A stretch of 63,749 nucleotides of DNA, the filler included, from Collodictyon triciliatum (Eukaryota), in assembly GCA_043381765.1 (NCBI GenBank). It is 5 parts of 5 records of this genome, joined end to end, with 100 filler letters (N's around TTAATTAATTAA, not from the genome) between each part and the next. Parts side by side here need not be neighbours in the genome. Positions count along the whole stretch, not along the records: positions 1 to 26,096 come from JBHJMP010000337.1; 4 more parts are not named here. One strand, written 5' to 3'. Both the position numbers and the translations under genes were made by a program. Positions 885 through 10,500 of this stretch are shown in pieces (within the stretch, counting starts at the first letter, position 1; every line of letters begins with the position of its first letter). The notes beneath the pieces were generated by a model. The model was not told where the DNA came from and ran no database searches. It was given only the letters and a program-made list of their open reading frames with translations.

Positions 885-2495
885 CTATTTGGCCCAAAAG
901 TTTGGGTTTTGTGGGTAGGGATGATAGGAAGCTGGCGGCGCTCCGTAAACTGGTGGATAATTCGGATACTGGTTTGAAGGGTTGTAGTAATTGCTATTTG
1001 ACGGCGGCACTTGAGAGGAATTTCCTATGGTGAGTAGATGAGCCAAAGTTGTGAGCGAAGCCATGAGTTTTTATGCACCTGATTTTTATGAAGTTTGTGT
1101 TCTGGAAAAAAACTGCATTTATGTGGGAGAGGAATCCTCTAATAGTTTGAATATTGTAAAGGTTATATTATCTGGTGAAATCGCTTCGATGTATCACCTG
1201 GTTGAATTATCATCTCAAGACTCTTCACACCATTATCGAGCCTAGAAATGGTCCCAGAGAGCTCGCTTACAATGGCATTCAGTCTCGACTTTGTTTATTT
1301 TATTATTTTTTTGACGTTACGTGGTTATTTATTTCATCGGCCATAATAAAATAATATCTTGAGGTGAAGTTACAAACAATGTCTTGGATAAATATTCGTT
1401 ACCAAGGTACGGTGTGACATTTGATCGAAAATCTCCGATATGAAAGCTGCAAATAGTTGAGTGGTGTTATGATTAATTTGTGGCACATAAATAAGTAAAA
1501 AAGTTTTTTTTTGCCCCATAACTTCACATGTTATGTACATGGGAGGATTCAGTCCAGGTGAAACAAATAAGGGAGTTGGGGAATGCGCAAGTCACATATA
1601 AGGTTGGAACCTTGTGGGATATTCGGGGCCGTAAGGGGTGCATGTCGCGGCATGGAAGGGGCACTTGGGTACACAGGGGCTATAAAAGAAGAGTAAGATA
1701 GATGAACCAAAAATATATCAGCACCATTTCAATAGACGTATTAAGTATACATATAGATATAATAGTGGAGCAAAACTTAAGCATTTATATGTGAGTGATA
1801 TCACGCCAGGGTGACATTTCAAATAAAAGGATACCATCAAACTTTTCGAATCCATGTCCAGACAATTTTTTATGCGGTGGATGTCCAGATATTTGGTGTT
1901 GATTTAGCGGCTGGATTAGTAAATGCTCATTCGGAGATGCACCAAACGAGGATGGTTGACCCTGTGTAGATTGGCTCGGTGGACGAGTTGAATTTGAGGG
2001 TCCCAAAGGGCCTGGTTGTGCACTGTTCCATGTTTGAGCACCCCAAGGATTTGATTGGTTTGGTGCGATTTGTCCTGGTTGAGGGTTAAAAAGATTTGTT
2101 TGGCTTGGTGCGGTTTGTTCTGGTTGAGAGCCAAAAGGATTTGATTGGCTTGGTGCAGTTTGTCCTGGTTGAGAGCCAAATGGATTTGATTGGCTTGGTG
2201 CGGTTTGTCCTGGTTGAGGGTTAAAATGATTTGATTGGCTTGGTGCGGTTTGTCCTGGTTGAGGGCCAAATGGATTTGATTGGCTTGGTGCAGTTTGTCC
2301 TGGTTGAGAGCCAAATGGATTTGATTGGCTTGGTGCAGTTTGCCCTGGTTGAGGGCCAAATGGATTTGATTGGCTTGGTGTAGTTTGTCCTGGTTGAGAG
2401 CCAAATGGATTTGATTGGCTTGGTGCAGTTTGTCCTGGTTGAGGGCCAAATGGAGAAGACTGTCCAGGCTGAGGTTGAGGCGGTGTATTGGACAT
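885..2495 (-). CDS. Hypothetical Q/P/S-rich protein with about 9 tandem 15-aa NPF/FG repeats, a short helical middle region and a Y/P-rich tail (5 exons)
   Basis: ATG at 2495 (MSNTPPQPQP). GT-AG splicing joins ...FEKFD|APVYPS...NIPQ|AFISEIFDQMSHRTL|SRLNAIVSELSGTISRLDNGVKSLEMIIQP|GNSSQVPP...NPNFWAK* in consistent phases; TAG at 885-887. Confidence 0.65.
2050..2455 (-). repeat. Coding 45-bp tandem repeat (GPQPGQTAPSQSNPF, about 9 copies)
   Basis: The unit ccaaatggatttgattggcttggtgcagtttgtcctggttgagag/gg is repeated with few substitutions. Confidence 0.95.
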
Positions 2496-5088
2496 TATCA
2501 CTCTCTGAGGAACCCTGCATTGATACAACCAAAATCATGTAAAAGTTAACGTCAACAAATAGTCCTGGTATGGAGCTCCATAACTCCAACTGCACGCTGC
2601 GCACTATGTACTTCTTCGTTCCTGTTGGCGAGTGAATAGGACAGAAGAAAAGGGAAAACGGAAAACGGAAAAAAAAAAGGAAAAGGACATAGAGAGATAT
2701 TCATGTCGATCACAGAGGACTGGTGTAAAGCAGGATTGTTTTGTAGATCAGCATTCGGAGGGGCGCCTGGTCGCTTTGAGCTTTTGCGGCCTGCTTTGAT
2801 TGGTTGAGAAGCGCTCAGCTCGATCGATCCTGCTGCACGAGAAATCCAGATTGAAAAATCAAAATTGGAAACTGATTGGCATCGCAAAATCGAGGTAGTA
2901 TAAATCTGGATATTATATTAATTATGCCATACGAGAGGTTAAATGCCATATCGAAACAAATAAATAATAGTTAATTGACATGATATACTTGAAACATACT
3001 ATAGCTTTGCAGGACTTGCTTGTTTGTTTGAATAGAAATTCCCAGAGATCGATCTATTCTGTACCTCGCAATGCGAATAAATGAGGTGATCACATACAGA
3101 GAAAGGGAGGCGGACTAGAGAGGAACAGTAAGATTAAACATAATAAATAAGAAAAAGTCTCTTTTGCTGAGAAATAATAAACACTGAGAGAAAAAGGACA
3201 CATTCTCCAGAAAATAATATAATTACACTAGCGTTCTTTCCTTCTCCTCCCAACCTGCCACATTCTAAAGCCGAAAAAAAACACGCAAGCGATTTGAAAG
3301 AACGATCCCGAGAAGGACGAGACCGCCTACCAGGAGACCAACGCCACAGCCCTGCCCCGATGAATACCCACTGACCGAACGCAAATGGGGAAGGCTGACG
3401 CAGCCAACCCAGAGAGCGAAAAGGGCACTTTACCACATCCCTTGCAACACAGGTTATGCACGAGTCACACTGACGATCAGGACGCCAGCTGCCACCGACC
3501 CGTGAGTACAACAACCTACTAATAAGACGGAGCGAGCTTTTTGAAACGAATAATAAAGGGGGAAAAAAAAAAGACGGATCGAGTACCTATGATTGAACGA
3601 GGTAGAGACGAAGTAATAGTCTTTTGCTCATGGAGCGTGAGCACAACTCCGTGGCATGGACGACTCCAACGCTCCTGGCCTGCTATCACATTGAGATCTC
3701 AAAACATATAATATTGCAACCCATAGAACAATACACCATTTATCATTTATCTTTGATATAAAGATTATCTGTAAAATGAAGAATTAAGTAAAGTCAAACA
3801 TTCCTCTCATGAAGTGGGTTAAAACAATTACGTAAAAAACAGTGAATTAGGTTTATATCATTTGAAAAATGGAGATATTTTATTGACAGCTTTTATGATA
3901 ATAAATGATGTTTTAAGAAGTTTGAATATCGAATGCCATATCAATACAAATATAAACTACTTAGTTCAATTCGACGGAACAAGAATATAAGCAAAAGCGT
4001 CATTTTATCGCGTCCAGTCAGGATGGGCGACGATCAAGTTTCCAAACATTTGGGAAAAAAATAAGATAACAAAAACAGCTGCAAAATAAGGAGCAAAATG
4101 AAGCAAAAAAAAAAAAATAGTGAGGGAGAGAAAAAAGGTCTAGCAAAAGTCAAGAGGCAAAATGAGACGCCTAAAGAAAGAGAAGGGTTCAGGCTCTAAC
4201 CATCAACCCACGGGTAGGAGATAAGTATGAATATAGGCTTAGAATTAGTTGCTCTGATTCATTCATCCGTTTCTTTTTTCTTTTTTTCTCTTTTCTTTCC
4301 TTATTTCTTTTCATCTCCTGTTCTTTCATTTCCTTTTCTTTCTTTTTTCCCTTTATCTTCGGTCTCTTTCAGCCTGTAGATGGATTGCCTTCATTACAAA
4401 GGTTGTGATTGGCTTGGTTTTATCCCTTTCAAGGCACACCATAGTTTTTGTACAACGAAAGTGAGCTCATATACACCAGTTTATTGCGCAGACAACCATA
4501 GGATTAAACCTGGATGAACGAAAGTAGGAGGTTTGACGAATCCAAGATAGAACCTAAATAATATAATGGTATGATTAGTATGTAATAATATTGAAAATAC
4601 TTGATAATATCATTCTATTCATGTAATCAATCTATATTTTATTTTCCATTTATGTAATAATATCATTAAAATTCCATGGTTACAAACAAGCCGTTGCCTT
4701 GGCCCAGACAGAACCCACCCTATAAACCTGCCACCAAACATGCATTTCAAAAAAGCATACTATCCACACTTGCGGTAATTATCTTGTTTGGAGCCGACAT
4801 GTTGACTTTCAGTCGCAATGGCTATACGGCCGCCCTTTCGAACTTGCCTAATTGGCTCTCAGCGTCTTGTCTCAACTCATTTGTATATAAAAAAAAACAT
4901 TGGAGTGTTTGTTTGCTACAATGCGCACATTTTGAAAGTCTCAATAGATGCTTATTTTTACATAAATTGATTTTACACATATGTTTTTTTTATTTTTATT
5001 ATTATTAAATCGACTGATTGACTAAAGTTTTATTAAAATTGAAAACTCGGTAGTTTTCTAAAGGATAAAGTAAAACACAGACTTTCAG

Positions 5089-7030
5089 ATGAAGAATAGA
5101 AAATGTCTTGAGTTTGAGAATCTAAAGTCTGTAAAACCAGACTACCGAAATGTGAAAACATCTCTGAAGTCGATGTAAAGAATCCGGATGGCTATGACAA
5201 AATCAAGATACGGTTTTATTGTGTCATGATTTGGTTACCAACACTTATCTGTTTGCCAGTTGTTACATACTGAAATTACAACAGCTCCCGACAATCGATG
5301 AAATGTTTTTTCTTTCTTTTGTACGCTTCAAAGACATTCGGAATAGTTTCACAAGATAGACCCGCATTTTTTTTCTTAAAAAAAAATACCAGGTATGAAA
5401 GATGACATGACTTTATATCTCAATGATTTTCGGTTTCTTTTTGCCCCAAGAAGAACGCTTTCCGTTGGTTGGACTGTCTCATGTATTACCGTACTTGGCG
5501 AAGCAAATGTTAACAGCTTATCATAACAGCATTAAGGAACATCTTGTAAAGAGGCTACTGCGCTTTATAAATCAAACAGTTCTTAAAGATGAGAATATGA
5601 AGAATGCTATTAAAAAGACAGAGCTACGAAAGTTAAAGAAGCCATCTTCAAGAAACTCGAAATACTGAAAAATATACAAAGTATGGGCTAAGATACATTT
5701 GCATCATATCATTCCCAGCGACAGTGTAAATGGTATCGAATATGATGTCTGAGTCCATCCAAATAAGTACATTCCATGTCTGATTTACATGAATCGCATT
5801 TTTGAGGACATTGGAGCCAAACTGCTTCAACCAACTCCATAAGAACTACTACTATACCATGTCACATTACTCTAGACACTGCATGTTTGGTAGATATATT
5901 AGTATCATCTGGAAAATATCATTACTGAAGAGTATATCAGGATGCAAAGAAACACTATGGGATGAGCTCTTTGAAATAAAGAAGAGGGTCTTTCATCAAA
6001 GAGACTAGAATTTTATATACATGATACAAACAGAGGGCTTGGTGGTGTCATTATTGTTTGAAAAGGAAAGGTATTTCAAATTCAAAATCCAAAAATAATC
6101 AAAACACAAGAATGGCGGTTTCCTCGGCTTTGTTTTCTCTCAATAAACTGTTGAAAAGAAACCAAAAAAAAATAATCAAAACACAAGAATGTTTACATAG
6201 ATGAACTCTCCGAAGAGCAGCTATCTTTATTAGCGACAAAAAGAATAGTTTGGGTGGACGCTGGCAAGTTTAAAATGGTTTACATGGTGGATGAAGCAGG
6301 TAAGAAATTACATTACACGGCACACCAAACAAGGCATGATAGCACATCTCTTTAAAATCACAAAATACTCTTGCGCGAGAAAGAAAGAAAAGTACAATGC
6401 TTGAGGGATATACATGACAACAGGTTTACAAAGTGCTGTTTCTTTTGGTCACAGGACTTTTGAAGAGAATACGCAGTTTGAAACATCAAGAGTATCTTTA
6501 ATCGATTTAGAGACAGAACTGAGTAAACATAAATCATGCACGGTCGATTATGAATAGTTCCGAAAATATGTATCTATGAAATCAAGATACCAGATACAAT
6601 TATCCAGATTTTATGAACAAGTAACTTTTCGAAAGATGATATGGATACAGTATGTTAATACAAAAAGTAGTGAACAATTGTTTATGGACCGAATCGAAAA
6701 GACATTTTGGCAAGGATGTTGTATTGGCATATGTATGCTGGAGCAGAAAACCTCTGATGAAACTTTTTATGCCAACAATCGGAAGAGGATTACGAAAAAT
6801 ACTATCCAAACGTTTTGAAGCGGTTAGTGTAAATGAATTTAGAACCTCCAAGATGTGCTGCAACAGCGAAAAAGAACTGGAATATATGACACTGAAAGGA
6901 AATACAAAATATATATATATATATATATATAGATGTCACATATGTAAAGAATGCAATCACTCAGAAACCAAACAAAGTGCATTCTTGACAATGGACTTTA
7001 ACTGCGCTAATAATATACTCAACAAAGTTC
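5089..7030 (+). pseudogene. Degenerate Fanzor (eukaryotic TnpB-family RNA-guided nuclease), resembling Fanzor1/giant-virus-type proteins
   Basis: Fragments across frames: YRNVKTSLKS; LPYLAKQMLTAYHNSIKEHLVKRLLRFIN; IPCHITLDTAC; YIDELSEEQL..RIVWVDAGK (RuvC-I); ETELSKHKSCTVDY; FRKMIWIQYVNTKSSEQLFMDRIEKTF; MPTIGRGLRKILSKRFEAVSVNEFRTSKMCC (RuvC-II); CKEC (Zn finger); TMDFNCANNI (RuvC-III). Broken by stops, frameshifts and two insertions. Confidence 0.9.
6091..6191 (+). mobile_element. 53-bp poly(A)-tailed retro-insertion with a 24-bp target-site duplication inside the Fanzor
   Basis: AAAAATAATCAAAACACAAGAATG occurs at 6091-6114 and 6168-6191, flanking GCGGTTTCCTCGGCTTTGTTTTCTCTCAATAAACTGTTGAAAAGAAACCAAAA. 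Confidence 0.75.
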
Positions 7031-7082
7031 TTCTAATCTCCAAAAAATGCATATATCTTCCTCTAAAAAAATCAGGCTGTTG

Positions 7083-7215
7083 GGTCTTTCCTGGCAGCCT
7101 TCACCACTACACAATCTTCGTGAAAAAAGTGGTTTGACCTTGGGTACTAGCGCACCAGGTTTACGAACCGAAATATTAGTACCCCTTCTAGTAAATCCAA
7201 ACAAATGAAGAGTAA
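7083..7215 (+). ncRNA. Putative Fanzor omega-RNA scaffold / element right end
   Basis: Lies directly 3' of RuvC-III. Stems ACCACT(7103-7108)/AGTGGT(7128-7133) and GGGTACTA(7142-7149)/TAGTACCC(7177-7184), the latter enclosing the hairpin GGTT-TACG-AACC. Boundaries are approximate. Confidence 0.55.
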
Positions 7216-7512
7216 ATCCAGTGGAACGAACGGACATAGGATATGACTCTTCCATCATCTTCATTGTCATTATTAATTTTCATTTTCATTTTCATTTTCA
7301 TTTTCATTTTCATTTTCATTTTCATTTNNNNNNNNNNNNNNNNNNNNNNNNNNNNNNNNNNNNNNNNNNNNNTTCTTTATTCTTTATTCTTTATTCTTTA
7401 TTCTTTATTCTTTATTCTTTATTCTTTATTCTTTATTCTTTATTCTTTATTCTTTATTCTTTATTCTTTGTTTCTCATCACTTTAGTTCTCATCGAGTTG
7501 TCGCTGGTAAGG

Positions 7513-10500
7513 ATGGGGCGGCCTCCTGCTCTTTGCTTCGATCTTTTCCTGCTGTGCCTTGTTTCTGCATCATCTCTTCAGCGCGTCAATGCGACGTGTT
7601 CAAATCCTTCTCCAAAGAACACCCCCCTCAGTGCCGATCTGCAGTTAGTTGGCTCTCATTGCCGGCTCATGAATGTGCTAATTTTTTTTTATTTGTTTCA
7701 TTCTATCGCATTTTTATTGCATTCTTATTGCATTCTTATTGCATTCTTATTGCATTCTTATTGCATTTTTATTGCATTTTTATTGCATTCTTATTGCATT
7801 TAATAACATGTAATCCTCTGAGAATACTTCAAATGTCATGACAGGTCACATCGCTTGACTTTGATGCGCACAATACACTCACGTTTGAGTTTTCGACACC
7901 CCGCATGGTCGATCCCAACGGTACTCATAGGCTCATGCACAGAATGAAACTGCATTTATGTATGATGTCGAGAATCTTTCCTTAATTTCCTATTTCCTGT
8001 CTGTTATGAATTAGGTGCTGTTCTTTGCTCGCTGCATCCTGACATTTCGTTCTCTGCGGAATCTTTTGAATTCAGGTGTGCCATTGAAGAAAGACACTGA
8101 ACTCAAGCAAATATTGTTTGGACCCTTGCATTATAACTATACAATAAAAGAAAAGGTTGCTTCTCTGTTTGAAAGCAGACCTCCAGGCGTTGCATTTCTC
8201 TATATGAATTAACTTGGGTGCTGAATAAAATATCAAGGGGTCTTTTTTCATCAAACGACCAGTTTTCAATGCATCAGGCGACACCTTTGAATAATGCCAA
8301 TTGGCCTCTAAATCCAATCGAGTATGCTCTGTTGAGAGATATTCTTAGGTAATAATTCAGTGTTATTTCACTATCGTCCGTATTTGCATGTTTCAGGATG
8401 ATTTAACAGATTATTTTCGAGGTTGAAAATATAATTCATAACAACCCCTTTTATGTGCATTTATTAGCAATGACGAGTATTACGCATCGTCTTTTATATA
8501 CTCTCGGTAAGTTATTCTGAAAACACGCTGTTCTCGATTAAAGTTGAGAATATAATGGATTGTTTGATTTTTCAATGTTTTTCTTAAAAAAAAAAAATTA
8601 AAAAAATTCTAGATACGACGATTTCGATTATGACTCTAGCTTTCTTCCACTTGATGGACTTTTCCGAAACATCAGTGCAATGCCAAACTGTGTGCTATTA
8701 TCAGGTTCCTGTCATCAACGCACCCACGAACTTCAAATGATTTACATGGCATTAAATTGATGTAAATTGTTGGATGTCTGAATGCTTTCATCCATCCAAT
8801 ATCAGCCTTTTACAGAAAAAAGTTTTCTTAAATATGCTTCTTTTGCTTTCACTCTTTTTATTTTTTATTTTTTTTTACATGTACTAGCTATCTATTCTCG
8901 TTCTGCTCGGTACGAGCTGCAAGTTAGAATCAAGAACCCTTCCCAAAATACTCTGTAAAAATCTTGAAATGAACGTGGATGATACATTACCCCCCCCCCA
9001 CGTTTTTTTTTTTTTATTCAAAAAGACTCGTCATCTAATATATTATATACAGATAATTGGTATGCTTTTATTTTATCTAAGTTTTTCTCTGTTGATTGTA
9101 GTAAAAACAAGACTCTTCAATTTTGGTACGCACCACTCTCATATTCGCTGGAAAATGATTATCTGATTATGTACGTACGAGGAGGAAAATACGGAAGCCT
9201 TTGCCAGCCAAGGGAAGGGTATGTTTTTCTGCCTCCGCGTCCTATTTTTCTCCTTTTTTTTTCACTTTTTTTTCACTTTTTTTTCACTTTTTTTTCACTT
9301 TTTTTTTTTTTTTTGTGAATGAACAGCCCTAGGTCGGAAGAAGTTACTACAATTAACTGTGCATCTATTATCATCAAAAAGGCTAATCCTGTATACTTTA
9401 GCATAAACTTACAGTTGGGTACTAAAGTATGCTATCCCGTTCAAGAGAGTTCGTGTGGTCCTGGTAAAAGTCTTTCCAGGTAGGCGATTACTTGGACATT
9501 ATCAATTACTAAAGAAAACAAAAGCTTCATAGAGTGCTCTAATTCAGGACAAATTTTCCCCCTTTTATTAGATAAGCTCCTTACATTTTTCTCTCTTTTC
9601 TTCTTCTATTGTTATTCATTCATTAGATCAGGAGAGTGTGTTTTATGCTCGTCTGATAACGGTGATTGTTGTCCAAAAGAACGGTATCTTTCCAATCCAA
9701 TCGGTTTGATCGGCTGTATCGAATCGAAGGCATCAGACTATCATTCTTACTTGTGCGACATGGTTTGGAAATATCTTTAGGACGTCAATGTTTATCGTCG
9801 TAAAAATGAACCTCACAATATGTATATTTATTTAAATTATTTTCATTCTTTGAGTCTCACTCAAATCATCGTTGGTGACCTACTCTCTAGCCTCTCTTTC
9901 CGTAATTATAAAAATAAAAATCAGTAATATCAAATATTATGTTAGTACACAGAGAAATTGAGAAACTATACAAGCGGTTACACAGGCCAGGCAGAAACCT
10001 ACTACTCCACCCTGTCAATATTCCAACAAGACGCACTCACGTTGGTGGACAATTATATATTTACAAAGGGTAAATATGCAATTTTTGAAAGGGGAAAGGA
10101 CTCTTGTAAAATTCGATGGAAATAAAAATCGCTTTACCATATTGAAATCAGACAGAAAATAAACACAACTTGGTAGGTTTGTATGACTTCGTTACAAATG
10201 CCGACTTCCATATGGACGGAAGACGCCCCTACAGCCCAACCCGGATGCGTGGGGTAACTCGGCTTTTATTTCTTTTCTGTGTATTGTGTAAAACAAAAAA
10301 ACAATATGTGGGCAAACCACATCTTAAATAAGCATAGGGCTGTTTGAGTCGAACCGAATCCATCTCCGCAGTACTCACTCCCGCTGGAATTTGTCCGACT
10401 TCAACGCCTTCTGTTATTCACATGTTTTTCTTGAAAATAATATCATTCCTAGGTTTTGCCGAACTGCAACGAAAAAAGTTGCAAAGATGGTTTCTTTGTG

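Follow-up and report, generated by a model that had tools for sequence, protein, structure and literature searches.

Introduction

Fanzor1 proteins form the branch of TnpB-like, RNA-guided RuvC DNA endonucleases that is found in eukaryotes and viruses. According to the available parts of the respective papers, Tc/mariner elements carrying them are present in both giant viruses and protists (Bao and Jurka 2013, PMC3627910), and a giant endogenous virus of Chlamydomonas harbours Fanzor1 together with IS630-Tc1-mariner families, with a fragment in host chromosome 17 (10.1101/2024.09.03.611062). An alternative RuvC-II glutamate is described as typical of Fanzors (PMC10530073, accessible text). The papers that propose a contribution of TnpB and Fanzor to the maintenance or spread of transposons still call their exact role there unknown, at least in their accessible sections.

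Here, we analysed a locus in the window, i.e. the whole 63,749-nucleotide stretch of Collodictyon triciliatum DNA under study, for which the original prediction had proposed a decayed Fanzor locus at 5089-7215 with an omega-RNA-like structured 3' end. Region 5089-7017 is very probably a dead, frame-broken Fanzor1 copy from a lineage that has intact members on mariner-type elements in giant viruses. Elements of this type have been described before, and the locus is an ordinary further case; new in this analysis are the mariner-type kin in giant viruses, the sister placement and the multi-copy family with private lesions.

Results

On the plus strand between 5074 and 7137, stop-to-stop ORF pieces rebuild a protein of the TnpB/Fanzor type. 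In a frameshift-aware alignment, window positions 5089-7017 (+) are colinear with residues 1-588 of P0004, a relative of 634 amino acids, with 247 of 577 aligned residues identical and the ATG at 5089 corresponding to Met1. A profile of 20 full-length relatives gave nine colinear plus-strand matches at 5198-7134, spanning profile positions 35-585 (E 1.1e-34 to 0.015), while the best piece elsewhere in the whole window reached E 0.12. P0004 itself matches the solved Fanzor1 proteins SpuFz1 (E 9.2e-37, residues 14-607), PpFz1 (7.2e-34) and GtFz1 (7e-16), and the family profile A1 retrieved the solved Fanzor1 chains with E 1.9e-84, 3.7e-80 and 3.5e-71, the next match being at 0.009. The solved proteins strongly matched by P0004 and the profile are exclusively Fanzor1, and the similarity to known Fanzor1 proteins is full-length. 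No solved chain named TnpB or Fanzor2 was found with profile A1 at E <= 1, the other matches being LaTranC (0.009) and a 'Transposase' chain (0.14), and neither closeness to TnpB nor a neighbouring serine recombinase, as expected of Fanzor2/IS607, was seen (recombinase domain in 0 of 118 window ORFs, Pfam). The predicted decayed Fanzor locus is hence borne out, with Fanzor1 as its class; a lack of similarity to Fanzor or TnpB would have spoken against it, and the Fanzor1 matches obtained via P0004 and the 20-sequence profile range from E 1e-37 to 2e-84. Its start and the gene itself stand, while the proposed end does not, as recognisable protein similarity stops at 7017. A third-frame segment at 7014-7208 was considered as a C-terminal tail and dropped (BLASTP against P0004 E 2.4, at an unrelated place). 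The features of the locus are listed in Table 1.

Table 1. Features of the Fanzor1 locus and the surrounding repeat unit, in window coordinates.
Feature	Position	Strand	Remarks
Upstream part of repeat unit	4600..5088	+	covered by other copies; left end lies beyond
Fanzor1 pseudogene, remnant of whole coding region	5089..7017	+	P0004 alignment, nine profile matches
Tandem duplication	6091..6191	+	77-nt spacing, 24-nt exact cores 6091-6114 and 6168-6191; inside pseudogene
RuvC-I Asp codon GAC	6257..6259	+	aligns with invariant D372
Alternative ('rearranged') RuvC-II Glu codon GAA	6835..6837	+	in NEFRTSK motif; aligns with invariant E530
Zinc-ribbon (TNB) region	6856..6954	+	first Cys pair damaged (Ser codon 6865), second kept (6934, 6943, 6952)
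(TA)n microsatellite inside zinc ribbon	6910..6931	+	read YIYIYIY; replaces ~4 codons
RuvC-III Asp codon GAC	6994..6996	+	aligns with invariant D581
3' tail of repeat unit	7018..7181	+	no significant protein similarity; most structure-prone segment of unit

In the alignment to P0004 and its relatives, all three catalytic codons are kept, at exactly the positions predicted (6257, 6835 and 6994). The glutamate of the 'NEFRTS' motif is the alternative RuvC-II glutamate of Fanzors (PMC10530073, accessible text), and the canonical position is occupied by an invariant glycine in the relatives and by valine in the window copy. This gives the D / relocated E / D arrangement of Fanzor1, in which the canonical Glu is changed to Gly or Pro. 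Three residues invariant in the relatives, P373, G496 and R580, are lost in the window copy: the proline adjoining the RuvC-I aspartate is replaced by alanine, a change common to the other copies too (6262 T>A is silent), and the arginine preceding the RuvC-III aspartate is replaced by methionine.

The predicted zinc-finger region is present in damaged form, with three of four cysteines kept and the (TA)n insert inside it. Every other copy aligned over position 6865 carries T instead of A, which restores the cysteine. Where the microsatellite lies, ordinary residues are found in P0001, the closest fragment. The TNB domain (PF07282) score of the window piece, 15.4 bits, lies under the Pfam cut-off of 26.3, which was passed by one of 15 relatives scanned. 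A C4 zinc ribbon is therefore a property of the family, not of the window copy.

The broken frame noted originally was confirmed, with nine frameshifts plus 11 stops along the reading path, among which TAG occurs three, TGA five and TAA three times, and no ORF able to yield the protein is left. Because of these frameshifts and stops, the microsatellite, the lost zinc ligand and the three lost invariant residues, the window copy cannot make a Fanzor protein; the locus has no function and is no source of a usable nuclease. Compared with viral proteins it has an insert at ~6392-6497, also found in fragment P0011; treated as an intron, no version of this insert kept the frame.

In two public sequencing runs, 389 (X6) and 372 (X7) contigs, which belong to coded organisms and whose depth is not convertible to copy number, align on 4600-7175 and are 80-99% alike. 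With hundreds of such contigs in both runs, the locus is one member of a diverged multi-copy repeat family in this eukaryote or close kin. Several lesions are private to the window copy. At 5750 it has TGA, where the other copies have AAA, encoding Lys as in P0004, and one-base deletions near 5434 and 6705 in other copies abolish two of the frameshifts. The out-of-frame reading upstream of ~6709, by contrast with these private lesions, is common to the window copy and the fragments P0001 and P0008, so either the copies multiplied after inactivation or the same locus is seen in related assemblies. Some of the other copies skip 84-109 nt at the tandem duplication, and 4863-5052 is missing from some (joints 4862>5053 and 4753>5053). 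Cover of the 3' tail by other copies ends at ~7176-7181. No full-length protein of the host family was present among 150 listed of 247 library matches, a metagenome scan with family alignment A5 gave 216 pattern matches and no relative, an exact 20-mer scan for further copies gave no match, and neither did tblastn against the phage collection. Freshwater and lake metagenomes contributed small shares (0.05-0.13), from which no habitat is deduced; two of these metagenomes, X1 and X2, yielded short contigs (12 and 20), most of them less than 90% alike. No RNA run is among the listed carriers of the sequence.

An alignment-based scan of viral sequences confirmed 359 of 384 pattern matches as relatives; an earlier viral scan with a single 165-aa piece had given 14 pattern matches and no relative. 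The loci used further were the best 80 of the 359 by likeness to P0004, a biased sample, of which 78 were kept. Both viral records examined encode NCLDV capsid proteins. Judged by sequence, the nearest intact relatives of the window copy among those searched are Fanzor1 genes in giant-virus contigs of IMG/VR, with the library proteins possibly concealing eukaryotic relatives, and the expected resemblance to giant-virus-type proteins was right in substance. The virus-enriched group in the literature is Fanzor2, whereas the relatives found here are Fanzor1. The sister of the window copy is the viral clade of L001, L002 and P0004 (SH-like 98 with 116 rows, SH-aLRT 95 with 44 rows; quick tree methods only), the window row being a long branch of 1.1-1.3 changes per column whose exact placement is unsure. 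The viral elements measure 3.3 kb, are TA-flanked with terminal inverted repeats, and some carry a DDE_3 (Tc1/mariner-type) transposase, which lies at most 3 kb away in 15 of the 78 loci; many are Fanzor-only forms sharing these ends. L001 has 32-nt perfect inverted repeats, its transposase combines DDE_3 with HTH (E 1.3e-13), and its Fanzor gene ends 15 nt short of the right repeat.

At the window copy neither hallmark of a Tc1/mariner (IS630) element, a DDE_3 transposase or terminal inverted repeats with a TA duplication, was found. The transposase profile reached at best E 0.66 against the six-frame translation of the window, and tblastn of all viral-locus ORFs against the window revealed no transposase. 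A comparison of 7100-7260 with 3000-5100 for inverted repeats scored 18 (shuffle mean 20.5), a TIR profile found only a match of E 9.6 at 3732-3749 of the window, and a profile built on viral 3' ends (60 distinct ones) had no match in the window at E <= 10. Profile, tblastn and repeat searches thereby agree with the early observation that no transposase or terminal inverted repeats are visible nearby. The right flank contains an N gap (7330-7372) and microsatellites. The putative mariner link of the window copy is drawn from its relatives only. By eye, a candidate right end at ~7164-7181 resembles the viral repeat.

A live, intron-bearing gene whose breaks are introns or assembly errors is close to refuted. 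Eukaryotic Fanzor genes often have introns (PMC10530073, accessible text), the draft assembly contains N gaps, and the insert shared with P0011 would suit such a gene. However, six stops fall on aligned residues, including the conserved Lys (5750), all three stop codons occur, the nine frame changes lie inside conserved blocks and not at GT..AG-bounded gaps, invariant residues are replaced, and host exons of the same window are open, e.g. histidinol dehydrogenase (E 7e-46). Slightly less improbable, though still very unlikely, is that the gene is a relic of a larger integrated giant-virus genome, with the rest of the insertion around the locus. The nearest intact relatives do lie in giant-virus contigs, and integrated giant viruses with such elements have been described (10.1101/2024.09.03.611062, available text). 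Yet when 945 ORFs of the 78 viral loci were compared with the window, only Fanzor ORFs matched; two matches outside 5000-7300 were marginal (E 0.002 and 0.006) and far off. The neighbouring viral genes expected of an integrated giant virus are absent from the window, where Pfam on 118 ORFs recognised only ordinary, intron-split genes of host type and nothing in 1-16 kb, and the diverged copies, which number in the hundreds in two runs, suit a dispersed repeat better than one insert.

The locus could also have lost its protein and been kept as a guide-RNA 'ghost', with its 3' end supplying omega-RNA in trans to intact members, a reading we regard as improbable. The 3' end is the part of the unit with the strongest fold signal. 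Against shuffles, 7000-7254 gave z -2.2, and 7001-7160 reached -2.97, the lowest value when 61 windows were slid across the unit; predicted stems lie at 7070-7135. Omega-RNA loci without a protein are reported for another Fanzor1 (PMC10432273, accessible text). X6 and X7 contigs also have an adapter-like loose end. Such ends are presumably of the type typical of cDNA libraries. Against this, the value of -2.97 loses significance once corrected for being the lowest among 61 windows. The right-end RNA scaffold of the viral relatives is backed by compensatory changes, and its covariance model recovers eight of eight viral loci not used in training, but has no match in the window at E <= 10 (0.44 with filters off); the viral 3'-end sequence profile gave no match either. 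The host family, moreover, showed no defined right end or guide and no intact partner. The omega-RNA-like 3' end proposed originally is not established by this, the fold signal being modest.

Discussion

The evidence favours a decayed Fanzor1 copy, with the following probable history. The copy belongs to a lineage with intact members on TA-flanked elements bounded by inverted repeats in giant-virus genomes, some of them with a DDE_3 transposase. By analogy with characterised Fanzors, the intact ancestral protein may have bound an omega-RNA from the right end of its element and cut matching DNA, with D of RuvC-I, the relocated E of RuvC-II and D of RuvC-III presumably as its active site. Judging by proposals in the papers on TnpB and Fanzor, it may have helped to maintain or spread the transposon. 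The window copy would then have decayed until neither transposase nor recognisable ends remained. A bolder version is doubtful, in which a mariner-type Fanzor1 family that is still active has travelled between giant viruses and the present freshwater eukaryote, and in which other copies in the genome remain intact and transcribed, with a guide RNA of their own at the right end. If this were true, the host family would have a 3' scaffold unlike that of the viruses and provide a new omega-RNA/TAM pair.

The locus adds one more eukaryote to the Fanzor1 hosts. It is also another example in which the closest intact kin of a Fanzor family in a host genome are transposons of giant viruses. This fits the printed idea, as far as the available text of both sources goes, that giant viruses carry such elements between genomes (PMC3627910; 10.1101/2024.09.03.611062). 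Any practical value is to be sought in the relatives, as 359 viral loci have intact genes which, together with a right-end scaffold, are candidates for compact editors.

Bacterial TnpB (IS200/IS605) and Fanzor2 (IS607-type) share the RuvC fold, the zinc ribbon and a right-end guide RNA with the present group (PMC10432273, PMC10530073, accessible text). In contrast to them, the relatives described here, of ~620-650 aa, have an N-terminal half that is long, and no serine or HUH recombinase lies near the locus. Closer are the solved Fanzor1 nucleases of Spizellomyces punctatus (8gkh), Parasitella parasitica (9cf0) and Guillardia theta (9cer), to which the family profile aligns over nearly the full length and whose D / relocated E / D active site and zinc ribbon are common to the family of the relatives, whereas the window copy is a pseudogene and distant kin. 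The viral relatives found here share the layout of the PGv-1 (Phaeocystis giant virus) and PUl elements, as given in the accessible part of their description, namely a mariner-type transposase and Fanzor1 between inverted repeats and TA flanks, a likeness drawn by layout and not by sequence; in the window copy, by contrast, a transposase and recognisable ends are missing, either by loss or from the outset. The endogenous virus of Chlamydomonas, as far as its available text goes, differs in degree, with 80% nucleotide identity there against ~42% protein identity of the window copy to the nearest viral element, and in setting, since the window copy belongs to a multi-copy host family and no integrated virus is seen in the window. 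It resembles the present case in its virus-borne mariner-Fanzor1 elements with Fanzor-only and degraded variants, and in a decayed fragment in a host chromosome, which was read as sharing between virus and host.

The broken Fanzor1 gene and its active site

The locus holds a dead copy of Fanzor1; its host family is multi-copy and related to the mariner-type elements of giant viruses. Plus-strand open reading frame (ORF) pieces from 5074 to 7137 rebuild a TnpB/Fanzor-type protein. A search of 1.84 billion library proteins with the longest of them (6640-7137, 165 aa) returned 247 relatives at E <= 0.001, of which 52 reached E <= 1e-10; the full-length ones, ca. 590-700 aa long, were matched at their C-terminal ends. 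In a frameshift-aware alignment the copy corresponds to residues 1-588 of P0004, the best full-length relative (634 aa), with 247 of 577 aligned residues identical. Nine frameshifts and 11 stops (TAG three, TGA five, TAA three times) interrupt the frame, six of the stops at aligned residues and five within inserts; the Fanzor ORF fragments in broken frame of the original prediction are real. A profile from 20 full-length relatives (A1) detected nine colinear pieces (E 1.1e-34 to 0.015) and elsewhere in the window nothing better than E 0.12. Neither tblastn with four relatives nor self-blastn of the locus revealed a second copy in the window.

Among solved proteins, P0004 matched three Fanzor1 proteins and no others at E <= 1. 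A1 matched the same three at 1.9e-84, 3.7e-80, and 3.5e-71, the next match being at 0.009, and the main interpretation as a decayed Fanzor locus proved right. Pfam support was weak: a window piece reached 15.4 bits against a cut-off of 26.3, and PF07282 was matched by 12 of 15 relatives at E <= 0.01, in one above the cut-off. D372, E530, and D581 are invariant in A1, with Gly at the position of the canonical TnpB RuvC-II glutamate. Excerpts of PMC10530073 describe a 'rearranged' Fanzor site, with Pro or Gly in place of the canonical Glu and an alternative Glu ~45 residues further on; judged by sequence, the Gly and alternative Glu of the A1 family are this site. The window copy retains the catalytic triad, its RuvC-I D, RuvC-II E, and RuvC-III D codons lying exactly where they had been predicted, and has lost P373, G496, and R580. 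One zinc-ribbon ligand is gone (Ser codon at 6865), and a (TA)n run lies inside the ribbon.

The surroundings are those of a draft eukaryotic assembly, with N gaps, many microsatellites, and 29-46% G+C. Pfam identified intron-split host genes, namely a choline-transporter-like gene, RRP7, Hid1/dymeclin, a WD40 gene, histidinol dehydrogenase, and RtcB. The scan covered 118 of 167 complexity-filtered ORFs of at least 75 aa (250 ORFs in all); 49 were excluded by hand, being Fanzor pieces, ORFs overlapping another ORF on either strand, or ORFs within repeats. The low-complexity ORF on the minus strand was scanned and matched no Pfam family.

Features in and around the locus, and in one viral locus
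Position	Strand	Feature	Reading
1785-2534	-	Long low-complexity ORF; 45-nt tandem repeat, 9 copies (2047-2454), Pro/Gln/Ser-rich unit	
3732-3749	+	Reads TACACC...; 16 of 18 positions as in the viral inverted repeat tip; strand right for a left end; 1340 nt upstream of the ATG, the spacing of viral locus L001	Possible left end, a lead only
4692-4783		Summed contig depth of sequencing runs X6 and X7 3-5 times that of the Fanzor body (~600 vs 100-250)	May belong to a commoner short derivative or a different repeat
4966-4978	+	Matches ATTGATTTTACAY exactly over 13 nt; 111 nt before the ATG	Chance, or possibly what is left of a second element end
5079-5142		9-bp perfect inverted repeat around the Fanzor start codon; viral covariance model, minus strand, E 0.49	Probably chance
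5089-7017	+	Fanzor1 copy, from its ATG	Dead copy
7330-7372		N gap, with two microsatellites, immediately right of the locus	
21297-22949	+	Long low-complexity ORF, 550 aa, Ser-Gln repeat	
L038:4755-4897		Four-helix scaffold with compensatory changes, gene 3' end plus right inverted repeat; also in 21 other viral loci (alignment A3)	Candidate omega-RNA

Viral relatives and the missing element ends

In IMG/VR, A1 picked out 384 pattern matches; 359 proved to be relatives, and 78 loci were retained. Many are from giant-virus bins as large as 267 kb, and in both records examined (L002 and L004) NCLDV capsid proteins score over the curated cut-off. L001, 88% identical to P0004, belongs to a 3.3-kb element with 32-nt perfect inverted repeats at its ends, each adjoined by TA. 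It carries a Fanzor gene, with the stop codon 15 nt short of the right inverted repeat, and on the other strand a 346-aa transposase (DDE_3 plus HTH, E 1.3e-13). Such a transposase occurs in 15 of the 78 viral loci within the 3 kb fetched; in other loci the left repeat is only ~460 nt upstream of the Fanzor gene, leaving no space for one. In L047, L065, and L069 a G+C-rich palindromic insert, which looks like a small nested element, breaks the right-end scaffold ~70 nt past the stop and just before the repeat.

By summed tblastn score the window copy is nearest to P0004, the library protein P0151, and L001-L004 (41-43% identity). Entered as a read-through with X at each of 20 breaks, it was sister to {P0154, L002, L001, P0004} in a 116-row FastTree (SH-like 98) and again in a quick IQ-TREE of 44 rows (SH-aLRT 95), which bears out the suggested likeness to giant-virus-type proteins. 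We draw no direction of transfer from these trees, because the window branch is long (1.1-1.3), viral sampling favours P0004-like sequences, the library proteins carry no organism names, and the trees contain no named Fanzor reference.

Nothing of the viral transposase was recovered at the locus. Among 945 ORFs of at least 80 aa from the 78 viral loci, none but the Fanzor ORFs matched the window, apart from two marginal off-locus hits (E 0.002 and 0.006). A profile of 11 transposases reached only E 0.66, and no inverted repeat pairs the right flank (7100-7260) with 3000-5100, where the score of 18 lies below that of shuffles (20.5 +/- 2.4); the earlier remark that no transposase or terminal inverted repeats are nearby thus holds. 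The viral-repeat profile gave one match in the window (3732-3749, E 9.6), with no transposase remnant between it and the Fanzor gene. The ATTGATTTTACAY motif occurs once each in 50 of the 78 viral loci, always directly after the Fanzor stop; chance alone would give 0.62 matches per window at up to one mismatch. Its exact match in the window falls within a 190-nt segment (4863-5052) missing from some other copies, in which 4862 is joined straight to 5053.

A multi-copy host family

Ten public sequencing runs contain a small share of the words sampled from the stretch, and four were compared over 4600-7330 at a likeness of at least 80%. Two of one study, X6 and X7 (coded organisms A and B), contained 389 and 372 matching contigs; those of X6 comprise 53 at 99% or more, 78 at 95-99%, 135 at 90-95%, and 123 under 90%. 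The contigs cover all bins from 4600 to 7175 and practically none of 7176-7267, so the repeat unit starts no less than 490 nt before the ATG and has its right limit at ~7176-7181.

Several of the lesions belong to the window copy alone. At 5750-5751 nearly all depth reads AA instead of TG, turning TGA into AAA (Lys, as in P0004), and at 6865 all depth reads T instead of A, turning Ser into Cys. In many contigs one base is missing at 5434 and one at 6705 or 6708, which would do away with two frameshifts. The protein fragments P0001 (62% identical) and P0008 (79%) start in out-of-frame reading upstream of ~6709, and hence share a frameshift near 6709 with the window copy; they reflect either the continued multiplication of broken copies or the same locus in related assemblies. 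Among the 150 listed of the 247 library matches, no protein longer than 300 aa has more than 50% identity to the query, so an intact gene of the host family is not among them; a eukaryotic gene in split form might go undetected in such a search. One loose end in X6 resembles a template-switch adapter. The libraries may therefore be cDNA, a hint, not a result, of transcription of the host family.

Possible RNA structure at the 3' end

A conserved scaffold (22 sequences, 29 pairs) is formed in the viral relatives by the gene's final 60 nt together with the right end, with 98% of cells paired versus 46-62% in slid controls; nine pairs have changes on both sides, and none of 500 shuffles attained the observed values. 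On this covariation, the scaffold is a putative omega-RNA of the viral Fanzor1 lineage. In one helix an internal copy of the repeat tip pairs with the right repeat itself; part of the signal may therefore come from co-evolving repeats and not from RNA structure. Built from the scaffold, a covariance model recovered all eight viral loci outside its training set (E 1.2e-15 to 0.042). The same model found no match in the window at E <= 10, and with filters off over 3000-9000 its best hit (E 0.44) was on the wrong strand and away from the 3' end.

The fold of 7000-7254 has a z of -2.2, with 5 of 200 shuffles equally good. That of 7001-7160 (z -2.97) is the lowest among 61 windows of 160 nt (mean -0.22) and, as the minimum of 61 tests, suggestive, not significant. 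The proposed omega-RNA-like 3' end folds better than shuffles; as an omega-RNA it is unproven, and for the window copy the evidence leans against one.

Comparison with published systems

Our full-text literature search found nothing on this particular Fanzor1 lineage, though it may have been reported earlier. In the excerpts of PMC3627910, Fanzor1 is described in Tc/mariner elements, one of them in a Phaeocystis giant virus; some forms carry Fanzor alone, between mariner ends and with TA duplications, and spread of Fanzors by viruses is proposed. Those of PMC10530073 link Fanzor1c to Mariner/Tc1, and those of PMC10432273 report giant viruses with Fanzor1 and 'ghost' loci, i.e. omega-RNA without protein. 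A Chlamydomonas endogenous giant virus, as excerpted from 10.1101/2024.09.03.611062, has three Fanzor1 plus IS630-Tc1-mariner families, in which some forms are Fanzor-only or degraded, as well as a fragment in a host chromosome. The kind of element is thus already known, and the window locus adds a further member.
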